From: Patescibacteria group bacterium
GTDB lineage: Bacteria; Patescibacteriota; JACPGU01
Direction: 5' to 3'
Length of the DNA stretch: 64,000 bases
NCBI GenBank assembly: GCA_028718745.1
Contig: JAQULF010000002.1
Span: 11,628 to 75,627 of the forward strand
The notes under the pieces are model-generated. The model did no database searches and was not told the DNA's origin. It saw only the letters and a program-made list of their open reading frames with translations. Position numbers and translations under genes: made by a program. Of the stretch, positions 5,363 through 45,326 are shown piece by piece (positions within the stretch are counted from its first letter, which is position 1; each line of letters begins with the position of its first letter).

Positions 5363-6913
5363 TTAAAAACCTAATTCCTTTAAAACTTTTTTGAGATTTT
5401 TGTCTGCTTCTTCCGCTTTTACTTCAACATCTTTGAGCTCTATGAGAATATCCTCAACTGAAACATATTCCTCTACTCCGCCAAGGTGAATATAGCGACT
5501 TGGAGAGATATTATAATCATCTTTTTCAACATCTTTTTTTCCTATAAAAATACTAAAATTCTCAATCTCTTTTTTATTATTGTAAGTATCTACAATTTTT
5601 TTAACCTGCTCATCATTAATATAATTTTTCGGGTCGCCTTTAATAAATTCATGACTGGCATTAATAAGGAATATTCTTTCTTTTAATTCTTTTGGTTTAT
5701 TTTTATTTAGGAAAATAATTATTCCCGGTGCGGTTGTGTTATAAAAAAGATTTTCTGGCAAATATAAAACTCCTTCAATATAATCATGCTCAATAAACCA
5801 CTTGCGAACATCTTTCTCTTTATTTGTATTGGCATTGCCACTGCCACGAGAAGCAGCACCGGTATCTAAAACAATTGCAGCACGACCATTATCCTTTAAG
5901 CTTGAGAAAATGTGTTGTGCCCAACCCCAGTCGGCTTTACCGCCCGGATTACCGGCAGGGAAACGATTGTAAGTATCATTATTATAGATTTCTTCATTGA
6001 AACCAGGTTGATTCCACATCGGATTGGCAACGATGCGGTCAAACTTTTTTATTCCGTGTCCGCTTGCATCTTTAAATTTCGGATTGTTAAAAGTATCTCC
6101 CAATTCAATATCGCCCTCCATATCATGAATAATCATATTCATTTTCGCCATTGCCCAGCTTGGTGTCATACTTTCTTGACCATAAAGACGAAGTGGTGCA
6201 AAAACTTTATTACCCATTTTCTCTTTAAGAACTAATTCATTTTTTATGAGAAGTCCCGCAGAACCGCAAGTCGGATCATATACTTCCATTCCTGGTTCAG
6301 CATTCATAATATAAGCCATAATCATACCAACTTCGCGAGGCGTGTAGAATTCTCCCGCACTCTGTCCCGATCCTTCAGCAAATTTACGAATTAGATACTC
6401 ATAGCTTCGCCCAATAATGTCTGGCTCAACATCATTCAGTCCTAATCTTTTTTGACTAATTGCCTCAATAAGATTTGAAAGTCGGTCATCATCAATTTCT
6501 CGCTGCCCTCTAGTTGTAGCATTATAATCAATCGTATCAATTACACCGTCAAGTAGAGGGTTGTGCGAAGCAATCTCGCGGATTGTTTTGGTTAAATTTT
6601 CACCAATATTGGAAGAAAAAGAACGAATTACACTCCACGTATCTTCGTTTTCTGGATCTTTGGGCACGAGAGGAATAAAAAATCGAACCCTATCTCTTTG
6701 CACACCAATTCTTTTAAATGCTTCTGTCCGAGAACCAACTGACTTGGCTATTTTATTTACTTCATCATCAAAAACATCACAAAGTCGTTTCACAAAAATA
6801 AGCGGCAGAATATAATCCTTAAATTTCCCCGCATCTTTTGCGCCGCGTATCGCACAAGCAGCATCCCAGATCCATTGTTCAAGTGATTTGTTGTTTTGAA
6901 TTTCTTTTGGCAT
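5363..6913 (-). CDS. hsdM: Type I restriction-modification N6-adenine DNA methyltransferase HsdM
   Basis: 516 aa. Has an N-terminal HsdM_N region, SAM motif I 'VYDPTCGSAGLL' and catalytic 'IVANPMWNQ' (NPPW-type). Confidence 0.9.
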   Translation of the reverse strand: MPKEIQNNKSLEQWIWDAACAIRGAKDAGKFKDYILPLIFVKRLCDVFDDEVNKIAKSVGSRTEAFKRIGVQRDRVRFFIPLVPKDPENEDTWSVIRSFSSNIGENLTKTIREIASHNPLLDGVIDTIDYNATTRGQREIDDDRLSNLIEAISQKRLGLNDVEPDIIGRSYEYLIRKFAEGSGQSAGEFYTPREVGMIMAYIMNAEPGMEVYDPTCGSAGLLIKNELVLKEKMGNKVFAPLRLYGQESMTPSWAMAKMNMIIHDMEGDIELGDTFNNPKFKDASGHGIKKFDRIVANPMWNQPGFNEEIYNNDTYNRFPAGNPGGKADWGWAQHIFSSLKDNGRAAIVLDTGAASRGSGNANTNKEKDVRKWFIEHDYIEGVLYLPENLFYNTTAPGIIIFLNKNKPKELKERIFLINASHEFIKGDPKNYINDEQVKKIVDTYNNKKEIENFSIFIGKKDVEKDDYNISPSRYIHLGGVEEYVSVEDILIELKDVEVKAEEADKNLKKVLKELGF

Positions 6914-9790: not shown

Positions 9791-10414
9791 TTATTTTTTA
9801 CTTCTTCTATATCTTGTTCCCACATGTTGTTCGCTCATAACAGCAATTTTATTTTCGAGTAAATAATTTGATATTTGACCGAATGTCATTTTTTCTTCCT
9901 CTCGCATCTTTATTATTATTGGATCTGTTTCTATGTGTAAACGATATTTTTCCTTTTGTTTGTTTTTGCCCTTAATTTTTTCCAACAGCTTATTATATTC
10001 CTCGCCTACACCCTCTATATCTCTTGCTTTACCGCCAAGAAAGGTGCGTATTCCATGTTCTATCTCAGCTTTTCCCTTAGAGAAATCCACATTCAAAAAA
10101 ACTTGCGCTCTGCTTGGCTTGAGATTATCAAAAATTTCCATATTACCAAAAAATAAATAATGTTCTAATAGCTCTCGAAAATTCCAAGGCAATCCACATT
10201 GCGAAACAATATCTTTTAAGTCTCTAATGTAGTTGTGATAATTTGGTCCAAGCGAGTTAATAAATTCGTTATAATTTTTGAATTCCTCGGTTTTCCATTT
10301 TATCTTGAAGTCTAAAGAAATTTTTTTGAATTTATTGCCTAAAACCAAGATCTTCATATCTTGCTCTGCCGCATTATGCTTTCTAAGTTGTTTTTTGGAA
10401 GATTTTTTTATCAT
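9791..10414 (-). CDS. Hypothetical protein with a possible C-terminal HTH
   Basis: 207 aa. C-terminal 'MTFGQISNYLLENKIAVMSEQ' resembles a resolvase or Psq-type HTH. No catalytic motif seen. Confidence 0.4.
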   Translation of the reverse strand: MIKKSSKKQLRKHNAAEQDMKILVLGNKFKKISLDFKIKWKTEEFKNYNEFINSLGPNYHNYIRDLKDIVSQCGLPWNFRELLEHYLFFGNMEIFDNLKPSRAQVFLNVDFSKGKAEIEHGIRTFLGGKARDIEGVGEEYNKLLEKIKGKNKQKEKYRLHIETDPIIIKMREEEKMTFGQISNYLLENKIAVMSEQHVGTRYRRSKK

Positions 10415-10482: not shown

Positions 10483-10555
10483 AGGTGACTAAAGGGAGTC
10501 GAACCCTTGACCTCGGCACCACAAGCCGATGTTTTACCGCTAAACTATAGTCACC
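10483..10555 (-). tRNA. tRNA-His (anticodon GUG)
   Basis: Reverse complement folds as a cloverleaf with acceptor GGUGACU/AGUCACC, anticodon arm UCGGC-UUGUGGU-GCCGA, and T-arm AAGGG-UUCGACU-CCCUU. No encoded G-1 or CCA. Confidence 0.8.
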
Positions 10556-10645: not shown

Positions 10646-11971
10646 TTATGCACATGGAACCGCGTAAAAATAATCAGCTTCTAATAATAAAAGGTATCTG
10701 CCCCATGGATCTTTGATGAAAAGTAGAGGATTTTTACTTACATATTCTTGCAACGTTGGCTTTGTTAGATTTTCTTCTTTACTAACCTGCTCATCAAACC
10801 ACTGATTGAAACGGTTACCATAAATATATTTGAAAATTGGATCATTTGTATTTCGGAGATCGTATATAGCAATCTGAGAACTTTTTATCTCGCCTATCTT
10901 TGCAGTTTCGCTATCTGTAATATTCGGGAGATAGGTAGTATCTCCCAACTGAATACAGCCATTATTATAAGAAGTGTAGGTATCAAATATGGGAATGCTG
11001 ATGTCAGTTTGATTCTTTGAGAATTTCAAACCAATATAATCTGCTAGCTTGGAACTTGCCGGGAACCCCAGAGAACTATTTTTAGTATTTAAAAAATAAT
11101 GATAGCCAATACCTGTAGAATCAACCACAATTACGCCATCTCTTGTAGTAAGGTATTTATCTCTGGTTTCTCTTGCTGTTGTCTGCTCTGGAGTCTCGTT
11201 TTTAGGAGTCTCTCCCGGCAGTGAATAGCTTATATAAACAGTATCATCGGCATAAAATTTTAAATTCTCATAATCGCTTTTGAGTCTGTTTTTCTCATCA
11301 AAGTTAGTTTGCAAAATAGTTGATTGAGATAGTCCACCGTTCGGGTTTCGTGTTGCAGCGGGATCGGAAGTGATAGCAATGTTACCAACAAAAAATGCCA
11401 TGTTGGTTTCTTTATCTAAAACAAACTGATCGTTGATGGGTATTTCATCTATTGCTTCCCTATCCAGAAAGTCTTTTTTTGTAACTTTGTTACTATTTAG
11501 TCTTGCAACCCGATCATCATCATTGCCCCATTTATTTTTATTCCAATCAAACACGTAGTCTTTGAAATCTTTGGTGGCAAAAACATAAGGAACGGGTGCA
11601 CTCTTATAGTCGGCATCCGGACGAACCGCAATAATTCTCGTATATCCCGCATATTTCCCGACAGTAAATTTCCCCGCCTCATAATAATTAATGGTTTCTT
11701 CGCTAACCCCCATCTGCGCATCTTCTTTGGTAAGGTTGAAAAGCCCTAGCTTCTGATCAAGTTTTTTCATTGTGCCTGTAAAAACCTGCCTAACTTCAAT
11801 CTGCGGATTGATATTCCCACCAGTTACATCTGTAATTTCAGTTTTTTGCGCAAGGTTTTTATTTGCATTCTTTGAACGAACTGTCGCAAAATAAGAACCA
11901 ACTACAAGAATGGAAACAATCAAAACTGTCCCAATAATCATAGAGATGTATTTTTTGCCTCTTGTAATCAT
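10646..11971 (-). CDS. Secreted or membrane-anchored hypothetical protein
   Basis: The track ORF 10646..12058 has an implausible 29-residue N-terminal extension that runs into a tRNA fragment. The likely start is the internal Met (MITRGKKYISMIIGTVLIVSILVV), which has a signal-anchor. Confidence 0.5.
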   Translation of the reverse strand: MITRGKKYISMIIGTVLIVSILVVGSYFATVRSKNANKNLAQKTEITDVTGGNINPQIEVRQVFTGTMKKLDQKLGLFNLTKEDAQMGVSEETINYYEAGKFTVGKYAGYTRIIAVRPDADYKSAPVPYVFATKDFKDYVFDWNKNKWGNDDDRVARLNSNKVTKKDFLDREAIDEIPINDQFVLDKETNMAFFVGNIAITSDPAATRNPNGGLSQSTILQTNFDEKNRLKSDYENLKFYADDTVYISYSLPGETPKNETPEQTTARETRDKYLTTRDGVIVVDSTGIGYHYFLNTKNSSLGFPASSKLADYIGLKFSKNQTDISIPIFDTYTSYNNGCIQLGDTTYLPNITDSETAKIGEIKSSQIAIYDLRNTNDPIFKYIYGNRFNQWFDEQVSKEENLTKPTLQEYVSKNPLLFIKDPWGRYLLLLEADYFYAVPCA

Positions 11972-12085
11972 CTTTTTAAATTCACTACTATAAAACCAAC
12001 ATATAACTAAACGTTTAGCAGAAAAACATCGCAGTTCGTTAGCCTGATCTCTTTCCAAACCTGTAATACCTCTGGTGGAAAGTCT

Positions 12086-12156
12086 TTGCTCAGGTGGAAT
12101 CGAACCCTCGATACCAGTACCACAAACTGGAGTTTTACCACTAAACTATGGTCACC
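12086..12156 (-). pseudogene. tRNA-His(GUG)-like fragment: 5' two-thirds is intact, but the T-arm and 3' acceptor strand are non-complementary
   Basis: Reverse complement GGUGACCAUAGUUUAGUGGUAAAACUC-CAGUU-UGUGGUA-CUGG... has good D and anticodon arms. The T-stem GAGGG/CCACC and the 3' strand UGAGCAA cannot pair with GGUGACC. Confidence 0.5.
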
Positions 12157-12537: not shown

Positions 12538-12683
12538 TCGTCACAGTTCGCTTCATGCTCTCCATAAAAATTCGATTACGAATTTTTCTTCCAAGCATTC
12601 CGCAACTGCTCCTCTTACGAAAAAATCCTATTATATATTTTTGGTATAGATTTTTTCGTTTTTTCTTAAGTCTGACTAAACTA

Positions 12684-12702
12684 AATCGGGGGTGTGGGAT
12701 TC
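12684..12702. repeat. 19-nt exact direct repeat of the tRNA-Pro 3' end (att-core-like), lying 130 nt downstream of the tRNA
   Basis: aatcgggggtgtgggattc occurs at 12684-12702 and again at 12832-12850, which is the 3' acceptor and T-stem of tRNA-Pro plus two trailer nucleotides. Confidence 0.7.
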
Positions 12703-12793
12703 CTCCTCGCTCCGACTCGGAGCCGGGGCGCTACACACAGAATGCTCCTAAAGTCGCATTCTACTCGCGCCCTTCGAATCCCCATCCCATATG

Positions 12794-12830
12794 ATCAGAA
12801 ATATGGGCTAATTATAGCCATATTTCTGAT
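12794..12830. other. Near-perfect 16-bp inverted repeat hairpin immediately 3' of tRNA-Pro
   Basis: atcagaaatatgggcta-attat-agccatatttctgat. Confidence 0.5.
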
Positions 12831-12833
12831 TAA

Positions 12834-12908
12834 TCGGGGGTGTGGGATTCGAACCCACGACCTCTCGGTCCCAAACCGAGTGCGCTAGCCAGGCTACGCT
12901 AACCCCCG
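12834..12908 (-). tRNA. tRNA-Pro (anticodon UGG)
   Basis: Reverse complement CGGGGGUUAGCGUAGCCUGGCUAGCGCACUCGG-UUUGGGA-CCGAG...GUGGGUUCGAAUCCCACACCCCCGA. Confidence 0.85.
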
Positions 12909-12933
12909 AAGATATTTTTATAAAAGTTCCTTC

Positions 12934-13010
12934 TAAACCCACGACCTCCCCGTACGGGGTGCGCTATAGCCAGCGGAGTCTACCCCGTCGGATAGCGGGA
13001 CTAACCCCCG
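12934..13010 (-). pseudogene. Degenerate tRNA-Pro paralogue or fragment
   Basis: Shares exact blocks with tRNA-Pro: CGGGGGUUAG at the 5' end, CUGGCUA / AGCGCAC in the D region, and AGGUCGUGGGUU. It has a 26-nt insertion after the acceptor 5' strand, a 2-nt 'anticodon loop' (CCCCG-UA-CGGGG), and no 3' T-loop or acceptor. Confidence 0.5.
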
Positions 13011-13068
13011 TGCCTATGACACAAAAAAATTATAACACAAAGAGAATCTTTTTTCAACTAAAAAAGCT

Positions 13069-32481: not shown

Positions 32482-32570
32482 AGCAAGAAAGCAAGAAAAA
32501 AGTCAGGAGAGATCCTGGCTTTTGTTTTCGAGAAAAATATGATAAGATAAAAAATGATTTTGTACATACC

Positions 32571-32641
32571 TGCGGGATCGTCTAGCGGTAGGACACCGCC
32601 CTTTGAAGGCGGGTACCTTGGTTCGAATCCAAGTCCCGCAG
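32571..32641 (+). tRNA. tRNA-Gln (anticodon UUG)
   Basis: UGCGGGAUCGUCUAGCGGUAGGACACCGCC-CUUUGAA-GGCGG...CUUGGUUCGAAUCCAAGUCCCGCAG. Has a U1:A72 pair and the 3-bp D-stem typical of bacterial tRNA-Gln. Confidence 0.85.
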
Positions 32642-32673
32642 GCATGTACAAAATTTTATTATAGATAATATAA

Positions 32674-45279: not shown

Positions 45280-45300
45280 AATTAATAATCAAAAATATTT

Positions 45301-45326
45301 ACCCCGCCTTGAGCGGGCTTTTTTGT
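45301..45326 (+). terminator. Intrinsic terminator
   Basis: ccccgcc-ttga-gcgggc followed by TTTTTTG. Confidence 0.7.

Follow-up and report, generated by a model that had tools for sequence, protein, structure and literature searches.

What has left the tRNA-Pro gene of a Patescibacteria group bacterium standing between two partial copies of itself? The gene lies in a stretch of 64,000 nucleotides (nt) of contig JAQULF010000002.1 (positions 11,628 to 75,627), in the following called the window, and is marked by the 19-mer AATCGGGGGTGTGGGATTC, which occurs in exactly two copies in the 64-kb window, at 12684-12702 and 12832-12850. An initial annotation had taken this direct repeat of a transfer RNA (tRNA) 3' end for attachment-site-like scars of a tyrosine integrase. 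Described here are the architecture of the locus, its presence and absence in relatives, the deletion of an open reading frame (ORF) in the window, and the recurrence elsewhere of a structured element—the D motif—and of ORF–tRNA contexts; loci compared with the window are designated by L numbers. It is moderately probable that the locus is what remains, after loss of the ORF, of a small selfish homing cassette that is built around a GIY-YIG nuclease gene, targets the T loop, and resides in tRNA genes of candidate-phyla-radiation bacteria.

The tRNA-Pro locus and its occupied and empty states

The intact tRNA-Pro(UGG) occupies 12834-12908 on the minus strand, which is the strand of every feature of the locus. 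The gene does not encode CCA, is called by ARAGORN and by Rfam (65.5 bits), and has the cloverleaf as its minimum free energy (MFE) fold. On the minus strand, the 19-mer reads GAATCCCACACCCCCGATT and comprises the 3' part of the T loop, the 3' strands of the T stem and the acceptor stem, the discriminator A, and two trailer nt. The copy at 12832-12850 is an exact match to the 3' end of the functional tRNA-Pro and its 2 trailer nt, and the copy at 12684-12702 forms the tail of the D motif—a vestigial T-loop 3' part followed by the T-stem and acceptor 3' strands, the discriminator, and TT. The two copies are spaced by 129 nt with no ORF inside. The window, with a G+C content of ~35%, holds no third match with three or fewer mismatches, and shuffled sequences give an expectation of 0. 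Directly after tRNA-Pro follows hairpin C (12794-12830), an A+T-rich structure with a fold z score of -7.1. Its perfect 13-nt arms (12794-12806 and 12818-12830) fold into 16 pairs with one bulge; in L001, the same stem is formed by a different, compensated sequence, and a simple terminator scan judges the hairpin terminator-like on both strands. Hence, the exact downstream repeat of the tRNA-Pro 3' end and the inverted-repeat hairpin between the copies are both borne out.

Upstream of the gene, a 5' relic of a tRNA-Pro copy spans 12938-13010 and features the acceptor 5' strand, the D arm, the variable region, and the T-stem 5' strand GTGGG, and lacks the T loop, the 3' strand, and the anticodon loop. 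It has the blocks CGGGGGTTAG, GCTGGCTA..AGCGCA, and AGGTCGTGGG in common with tRNA-Pro, carries a 26-nt insertion, and has no 3' end, all as described in the initial annotation. Neither the relic nor the D motif is called as a tRNA by ARAGORN or the Rfam tRNA model, and the relic folded alone is of ordinary stability (z = +0.19). Overlooked earlier were the structured, G+C-rich ~85 nt 5' of the second 19-mer and a replacement in the anticodon arm of the relic: the 17-nt anticodon stem-loop has given way to the mini-hairpin CCCCGTACGGGG (12948-12959), which is identical in the window, L001, L002, and L006. Comparable anticodon-arm replacements are found in relics beside other GIY-YIG ORFs, namely in L137 and L139. 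The 26-nt hairpin insertion itself, TCCCGCTATCCGACGGGGTAGACTCC, sits in the D arm of the relic (12975-13000, placed by alignment); it is present in the window and, with stem changes, in L006, is missing from L001, and has a similar counterpart in the relic of L073. Since it resembles an ordinary intergenic terminator-like hairpin of the same genome (window 45298-45317), the insertion may be generic, and its candidacy as a special family was rejected on the grounds that the pattern also matches such a hairpin. A scan of the genome collection with the relic 20-mer CACCCCGTACGGGGAGGTCG returned only five chance matches in high-G+C genomes.

Just upstream of the relic, at 13029-13057, lies a promoter-like site of the form TTGAAA-17-TATAAT with 11 of 12 consensus matches and a TG extension. 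The block TTGAAAAA..TATAAT also precedes the plain tRNA-Pro of L003, an empty site. As judged by its match to the consensus, this site probably drives the tRNA operon; placed upstream of the relic, it would therefore put the relic, the ORF, the tRNA, and the D motif on one transcript.

The occupied and empty states are seen in relatives that were drawn via the 540-aa gene upstream of the relic, which yields a graded series and an identical protein in a Patescibacteria metagenome-assembled genome. L001 (84% identity, neighbouring glycosyltransferase-like gene) and L006 (86%) are occupied and feature the relic, an intact 83-aa ORF of the GIY-YIG nuclease type, and tRNA-Pro; the ORF is also intact at the orthologous position in L002. 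Its final codons in L001 and L006 run into the tRNA (CGG GGA TTA GCG TAG). L003 (81%) and L004 (78%) are empty, with a plain tRNA-Pro followed by tRNA-Gly within 4-8 nt, and the D motif is absent from the orthologous locus of both. The flanking genes—LytR, rotamase, tRNA-Asp, and the glycosyltransferase-like gene—are the same in L001, L003, L004, and L006. In the window, a three-way alignment with L001 and L006 finds ~250 nt of the ORF gone and its last ~29 nt retained as the 3'-end remnant TTTAGAAGGAACTTTTATAAAAATATCTT (12909-12937), a piece of a UPF0213-type GIY-YIG gene; the frame of the relatives ends at a TAG inside the tRNA that corresponds to window 12894-12896. On this alignment, the site in the window is therefore occupied but has lost its nuclease gene by deletion. 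The divergence of tRNA-Pro compared with its neighbouring tRNAs hints at most that the functional tRNA was imported.

These comparisons confirm the notion of mobile-insertion scars at a tRNA gene, since the site is polymorphic among relatives, and the description as a miniature or largely deleted element is apt for the window copy. The 19-mer is not a generic genome-wide repeat, and the relatives do not carry an unvarying arrangement.

As a separate observation, the ~145 nt between the D tail and tRNA-Gly(TCC) (window 12538-12683, minus strand) are absent in the empty-site relatives and contain two more inverted repeats, at 12617-12627/12649-12659 and 12555-12574/12579-12598.

The GIY-YIG nuclease and the D motif

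The 83-aa protein of L001 matches the GIY-YIG family PF01541 and the UPF0213 entries 1ywl (E = 7e-11) and 1zg2 of the PDB, with weak matches to the I-TevI catalytic domain and SLX1. By these similarities, it is assigned to the stand-alone Slx1-like branch of the GIY-YIG superfamily, whose members carry no auxiliary domains (PMC1564403). In six of seven further contexts (L017, L073, L134, L136, L137, L139, and L141), the ORF abuts a tRNA with fragments of the same tRNA on one or both sides. L017 and L073 have the order relic, ORF, tRNA. L134 features a tRNA-Pro(GGG) relic, the ORF, a functional tRNA-Pro(GGG), and a full-length relic with two hairpin substitutions; L136—from a Mucilaginibacter genome and, hence, outside Patescibacteria—a tRNA-Ser relic, the ORF, and tRNA-Ser; L137 a tRNA-Glu relic, the ORF, tRNA-Glu, and a 3' relic; and L141 tRNA-Ile, the ORF, and a 3' relic. 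The exception is L139, with two 5' relics and tRNA-Gly, where the ORF begins 13 nt after the tRNA; a 3' relic follows the ORF, so that the pattern still holds. The ORF of L133 is flanked by direct repeats, and no tRNA was called there.

The relics feature short GC hairpins in place of the D loop, the anticodon arm, or the T loop. Most break points or insertions fall at the T loop. Five relics end at the T-stem 5' strand or the T loop, with break points after GTGGG in the window, GTGGGTTC in L134, GGGTTCGAAT in L136, CGATCGG in L137, and GAGGGTTC in L139. The T loop is interrupted by a hairpin insertion in the L017 relic (36 nt) and the L134 3' relic, and in the D motif the core fills it. Exceptions are the L073 relic, with its break point in the anticodon loop, and two 3' relics, those of L137 and L139, whose T loop is intact. 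The D motif was not found in L133-L138 by a model search, which did not extend to L139-L141. In L017, a complete tRNA-Thr(TGT) is nested at 9820-9990 in a long stem, TCCCGCACCTTTTGCC ... GGCAAAAGGTGCGGGA; the stem stands where a surrounding tRNA-like sequence would have its anticodon arm, so that one tRNA is enclosed by the relic of another.

The core of the D motif in the window lies at 12703-12788 on the minus strand (121.7 bits with covariance model R1; the only copy in the window) and is proposed to form a conserved three-way junction. Helix P1 pairs GGGATTC (12776-12782) with GAATCCC (12696-12702), the latter being located inside the tail; P2 consists of GGGCGC/GCGCCC with the inner hairpin AGAATGC/GCATTCT, and P3 of CTCCGA/TCGGAG, likewise on the minus strand. 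The MFE fold of the window copy is the proposed junction, with a z score of -4.3. Core and tail together measure ~100 nt, the core alone ~60-90 nt across copies. The sequence before the second tRNA-end copy of L001 is conserved with the window, showing compensatory changes and an insertion in one hairpin loop.

Further copies were found by a metagenome scan with the 17-mer GGAGCGAGGAGGAATCC common to the window and L001, which gave at least 120 loci. Among the 120 matches listed, ~30 carry the whole D motif and the rest are chance matches, mostly on high-G+C contigs; at least 26 distinct copies align well. The counts that follow refer to these matches and, for genomic context, to copies with enough upstream sequence. 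The copies agree on the consensus GGGATTCGAAGGGCGCGAGTAGAAAGCGAG..GAGCTTTCTGTGTGTAGCGCCC.GGCTCCGAGTCGGAGCGAGGAGGAATCCC, after which comes the variable tail. Standard pairs make up 84% of the alignment cells in the helices, compared with 34-48% when the partners are slid. Five of the seven inner-hairpin pairs change on both sides, and the wobble pairs observed are G-U on the tRNA strand. Because the pairing covaries and the wobbles take this form, the D motif is probably synthesised as RNA, as part of the transcript of the tRNA operon. Where P1 would extend into the tail, pairing is found in only 44% of cells, so that the tail is mostly single-stranded. A short form without the inner hairpin occurs in L014, L030, L060, and L085.

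All 19 copies with an upstream tRNA lie on the same strand as this tRNA and 10-121 nt behind it. The tRNAs ahead of the motif cover at least eight identities—Pro, Tyr, Lys, Gln, Ser, Asp, Glu, and Ala—and several copies sit inside tRNA operons with the next tRNA 35-120 nt downstream. Most tails repeat the T-stem 3' strand, the acceptor 3' strand, and the discriminator of the upstream tRNA, the identity ending 0-5 nt past the discriminator and a few tails having one or two mismatches. The tail or the element is degraded in L034, L040, and L070, and L085 carries two tandem copies. A strong predicted hairpin of ~9-23 bp follows the tRNA directly in 14 of the 19 loci. The bases just 5' of P1 are often like the T-stem 5' strand, extending in L104 to a likeness to the anticodon-stem 3' strand and the variable region; in L043, the likeness is to the acceptor 5' strand. 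With T-stem-like bases on its 5' side and a tRNA-end tail, the D motif is therefore most aptly viewed as the vestige of a tRNA T arm in which a conserved core of ~60-90 nt takes up the loop. It may serve to give the vestigial piece an inert fold that can be processed, or it may act in cis for the nuclease.

In L001, L017, and L073, the tRNA that precedes the D motif has a GIY-YIG ORF immediately upstream, and in the window it has the ORF remnant there. Among the matches listed, the motif has so far turned up only on Patescibacteria-like contigs; one placeable host, the contig of L059 with 57% G+C, encodes a PurT closest to Kaiserbacteria and other Patescibacteria. The motif was not found in GenBank phages, PLSDB plasmids, or IMG/VR contigs, the last scanned with two patterns. 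A 6-kb search of Rfam 15 (E <= 10) matched neither the D motif nor the relic or the hairpin. A search with the motif alone gave best scores of 16.2 and 14.5 bits versus gathering scores of 62.5 and 45, and the match of its 3' half to CRISPR-DR9 (14.5 bits versus a gathering score of 45, E ~1) is not significant.

Several identities were considered for the D motif and rejected. A coding sequence is at odds with length differences that are not multiples of three and with covarying pairs. Transfer-messenger RNA, a permuted or split tRNA, a group I intron, hammerhead or other known ribozymes, signal recognition particle RNA, 6S RNA, and Y RNA were dismissed for the motif, or for relic and motif together, by sequence features and the lack of an Rfam match. 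CCA is present in the tail and absent from the tRNA-proximal copy in L072, L104, and L014, with the reverse in L081 and L107; given this inconsistency, the idea of a tail copied from mature tRNA was likewise discarded. For a miniature inverted-repeat transposable element, the 7-bp P1 arms could represent the terminal repeats and the tRNA-end repeat an unusually long duplication of the target, but the window holds only one D motif in 64 kb.

Some copies have unusual upstream sequences. L082 (1-240) and L095 (minus strand, ~1300 nt upstream of the D motif) feature an L017-like hairpin, the D motif, and a tRNA-Tyr tail with no tRNA-Tyr upstream; the sequence before the hairpin ends in ...GTTCGAGCTTGGTTGTAAATCCGCACA, and similar GTTCGA[AG]C ... 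C[AC]CCGC ends precede the motif in L090, L094, and L114. In L030, L040, and L122, the first 13-17 nt of the D-associated tRNA are repeated 100-135 nt ahead of it, and a structured stretch rich in G+C comes next. Two of these loci, L030 and L040, have in common CTCCTTCG-hairpin-CT[TA]CGGCGG[GA]GCGA[GA]. These upstream copies may be ORF-less 5' relics or a second conserved motif.

Other broken tRNAs and mobile elements nearby

A second broken tRNA is found in the same operon: a tRNA-His copy at window 12085-12155 (minus strand), called only by Rfam with 36.9 bits, in which 61 nt are identical to the tRNA-His of L003 before the copy ends just past the T-loop bases TTCGATTCC. Next come a 470-aa ORF with a membrane anchor (10646-12058, minus strand) and then a different, complete tRNA-His (10484-10554, minus strand). 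Searches of Pfam, PHROG, and PDB gave no match to the 470-aa ORF, which has 184 relatives in a set of 1.8 billion representatives; the lack of matches and its N-terminal membrane anchor led to its rejection as a recombinase, and it looks like cargo. No call was made anywhere in the window for tRNA-Arg(TCT), which comes next after tRNA-His in L003 and L004. L003 (6320-7940) and L006 (3912-5640) carry a large serine recombinase gene that is flanked by inverted repeats of ~110-120 bp and inserted directly after a tRNA 3' end, the L006 protein featuring the domains Resolvase, Recombinase, and Zn_ribbon_recom. These genomes thus harbour another mobile element, distinct from the cassette, for which tRNA ends serve as sites.

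Defence genes adjoin these tRNA loci. The window encodes the HsdM methylase of a type I restriction-modification system at 5363-6913 (minus strand), and in L001 (6454-9441) MmeI-like methylase/endonuclease and DpnI-like genes replace the rest of the tRNA operon downstream of the D motif. On a larger scale, the GC skew of the window changes sign near 32 kb, from negative to positive, and again near 46 kb, and the sole plus-strand tRNA is tRNA-Gln at 32570-32643. The skew changes could mark a replication landmark or an inverted segment.

A probable homing cassette and its alternatives

The intact form, present in the occupied relatives and all on one strand, begins with the presumed operon promoter, a 5' tRNA-Pro fragment with a GC hairpin for its anticodon arm and no T loop, and the 83-aa GIY-YIG ORF; its second half is made up of the ORF stop inside a complete functional tRNA-Pro, a long hairpin, and the D-filled vestigial T arm ending in the tRNA 3' end. 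By analogy with the phage T4 nuclease SegB, we infer cleavage, homing, and a role for the fragments. The small GIY-YIG protein would cut the T-loop-coding DNA of a cassette-free tRNA gene, and in an empty-site tRNA-Pro of the L003 type, the cut would be expected in or near GGTTCGAATCC. The break would be repaired by copying the cassette from the occupied allele, with the tRNA fragments as presumed homology arms, and the complete tRNA copy would keep the host viable. Most vestigial fragments would no longer be targets because their T loops are cut off or interrupted.

Several points weigh against this reading. The window is without a nuclease gene, so that nothing would be active there now. No UPF0213 protein was found reported as a homing endonuclease in the literature, and proteins of this type have no DNA-binding domain (PMC1564403). 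The intact T loop in the functional tRNA leaves the escape of the occupied allele from cutting unexplained. A GIY-YIG ORF is near only 4 of ~17 D loci with enough upstream sequence, the window remnant included; since most D loci are without the ORF, and L134-L138 have the ORF without the motif, the link between the two is loose. Relic and tail match the functional copy in each genome, which could reflect gene conversion and not one split resident gene. In addition, the further contexts of the ORF come from a small sample picked by similarity to the L001 protein, and the 3' 17 nt of the D motif are invariant by construction, being the search pattern.

The closest known parallel is SegB itself, a GIY-YIG homing endonuclease that is encoded in the tRNA gene cluster of T4 and is absent from related phages (PMC2330249). 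SegB recognises a site that includes GGTTCRANTCC, the motif of the T loop, and cleaves numerous tRNA genes, and segB is co-inherited with the adjoining tRNA genes (PMC2330249). The two systems are alike in having a GIY-YIG nuclease gene among tRNA genes. However, SegB is several-fold larger than the 83-aa ORF and is a phage protein homologous to GIY-YIG homing endonucleases, whereas the gene considered here encodes a predicted catalytic domain alone and resides on a bacterial chromosome. It differs further in lying inside a partly duplicated tRNA gene with its stop in the tRNA and with hairpin-substituted relics and the D motif around it. With only the last ~29 nt of the ORF left, the window locus is therefore a remnant and not a working member of such SegB-like cassettes.

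A second parallel is found in fungal mitochondria, where free-standing homing-endonuclease ORFs carry a replacement host-gene end and leave the displaced end as a fragment. Duplication of host-gene fragments with such ORFs is reported in the literature. As in the present loci, the ORF brings a partial copy of the target, one intact gene stays, and the displaced fragment forms a direct repeat. The fungal targets are protein-coding, with the ORF often fused in frame, whereas here the target is a tRNA gene, hairpins stand in for loops of the fragments, and a conserved structured element marks one of the boundaries.

Attachment-site scars, as proposed in the initial annotation, would imply recombination at the T loop by a tyrosine integrase whose element supplied a new 3' end and displaced the previous one, a later loss of nearly the whole element that left attL and attR ~130 nt apart, and a D motif that serves as a conserved phage-side attachment arm. 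Tyrosine integrases of the T-loop class leave a repeat from the T loop to the tRNA 3' end, and the present repeat, with its 0-5 additional nt, likewise flanks an insert with the intact tRNA on one side. The empty site in relatives is also in line with this, as are the tail-only CCA of L072, L104, and L014, which fits two origins of the two copies, and a tyrosine integrase downstream of the GIY-YIG-associated tRNA-Ser of L136. However, a scan of ten ORFs, reaching ~7.5 kb to one side of the locus and 5.5 kb to the opposite side, gave no integrase domain, nor was an integrase seen in any D locus examined; the gene of the relatives at this position is a GIY-YIG nuclease, and only 129 nt are bounded by the repeat. 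The CCA pattern is reversed in L081 and L107, and the tandem copies of L085, the upstream relic, and the ORF remnant are left unexplained. The repeat is part of a motif that is highly similar behind eight tRNA species—whereas the arm and core sites of integrases diverge with their target—and whose covarying pairs and one-sided G-U wobbles point to RNA; it is thus not the product of one integrase attachment site, and a tyrosine-integrase origin of the locus is unlikely. Rather unlikely, too, is a D motif that constitutes a free-standing, non-mobile small RNA gene of Patescibacteria, for example a tRNA-end mimic made by tRNA-processing enzymes, evolving in concert with the tRNA and unrelated to the GIY-YIG remnant. 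The strong conservation of sequence and structure with covariation would suit such a gene, as would the location on the tRNA strand inside tRNA operons, the single copy in the 64-kb window, and the few tail mismatches that are C-to-T and would keep a G-U pair with the acceptor 5' strand (L107, L122, L131). A gene of this kind is hard to square with its absence at the orthologous locus of the close relatives L003 and L004, different tRNAs ahead of it in different genomes, truncated, tail-less, or tandem copies (L034, L040, L070; L085), and its repeated co-occurrence with GIY-YIG ORFs and 5' relics.

A simpler history, in which tRNA-Pro genes were duplicated in tandem and decayed while acquiring unrelated GC hairpins and no mobile machinery took part, would account for three tandem tRNA-Pro-derived pieces, for GC hairpins that—like the 26-nt insert—occur at other intergenic terminator-like places, and for the ordinary stability of the relic. 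It seems barely credible in view of what it leaves unexplained, namely that relatives have a GIY-YIG ORF at precisely this position, that three lineages carry CCCCGTACGGGG as an identical replacement, a D core common to at least 25 unrelated loci, and the clustering of break points at the T loop. A last and very improbable alternative assigns the D motif the role of a guide or cofactor RNA of the domain-only GIY-YIG nuclease, whose three-way-junction scaffold would bind the 83-aa protein and whose single-stranded 12-19-nt tail, identical to the 3' end of the cognate tRNA, would direct cutting to the corresponding tRNA gene. The omega RNA or right-end-element RNA (reRNA) of IscB and TnpB and the short, tRNA-matching homing CRISPR RNA (crRNA) of type V-K CRISPR-associated transposons are built as a scaffold followed by a target-matching 3' segment, and the D motif resembles them in that 12-19 nt matching the insertion target—the tRNA 3' end—follow its scaffold. 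The two differ in that the target sequence is here also present in the occupied allele, and no Cas, TnpB, or IscB domain was found among the scanned neighbour ORFs of the window locus. If true, this would be an RNA-programmed homing system on the GIY-YIG fold; it would explain why one near-invariant scaffold suffices for eight tRNA targets and how the nuclease reaches its site despite having no DNA-binding domain.

No earlier description was found in the literature of the D motif, of stand-alone GIY-YIG genes in partly duplicated tRNA genes, or of cassettes that combine GIY-YIG genes and tRNA relics. The UPF0213 structures 1ywl and 1zg2 are deposited only as hypothetical proteins, with no assigned role found, and the systematic place of UPF0213 genes in partly duplicated tRNAs offers a testable function, namely tRNA-gene homing. 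For genome annotation, such loci yield tRNA-like fragments and repeats that mimic integrase attachment sites, and recognising the pattern avoids false calls of genomic islands. Patescibacteria are known for insertions in their ribosomal RNA genes; such insertions now seemingly extend to their tRNA operons.

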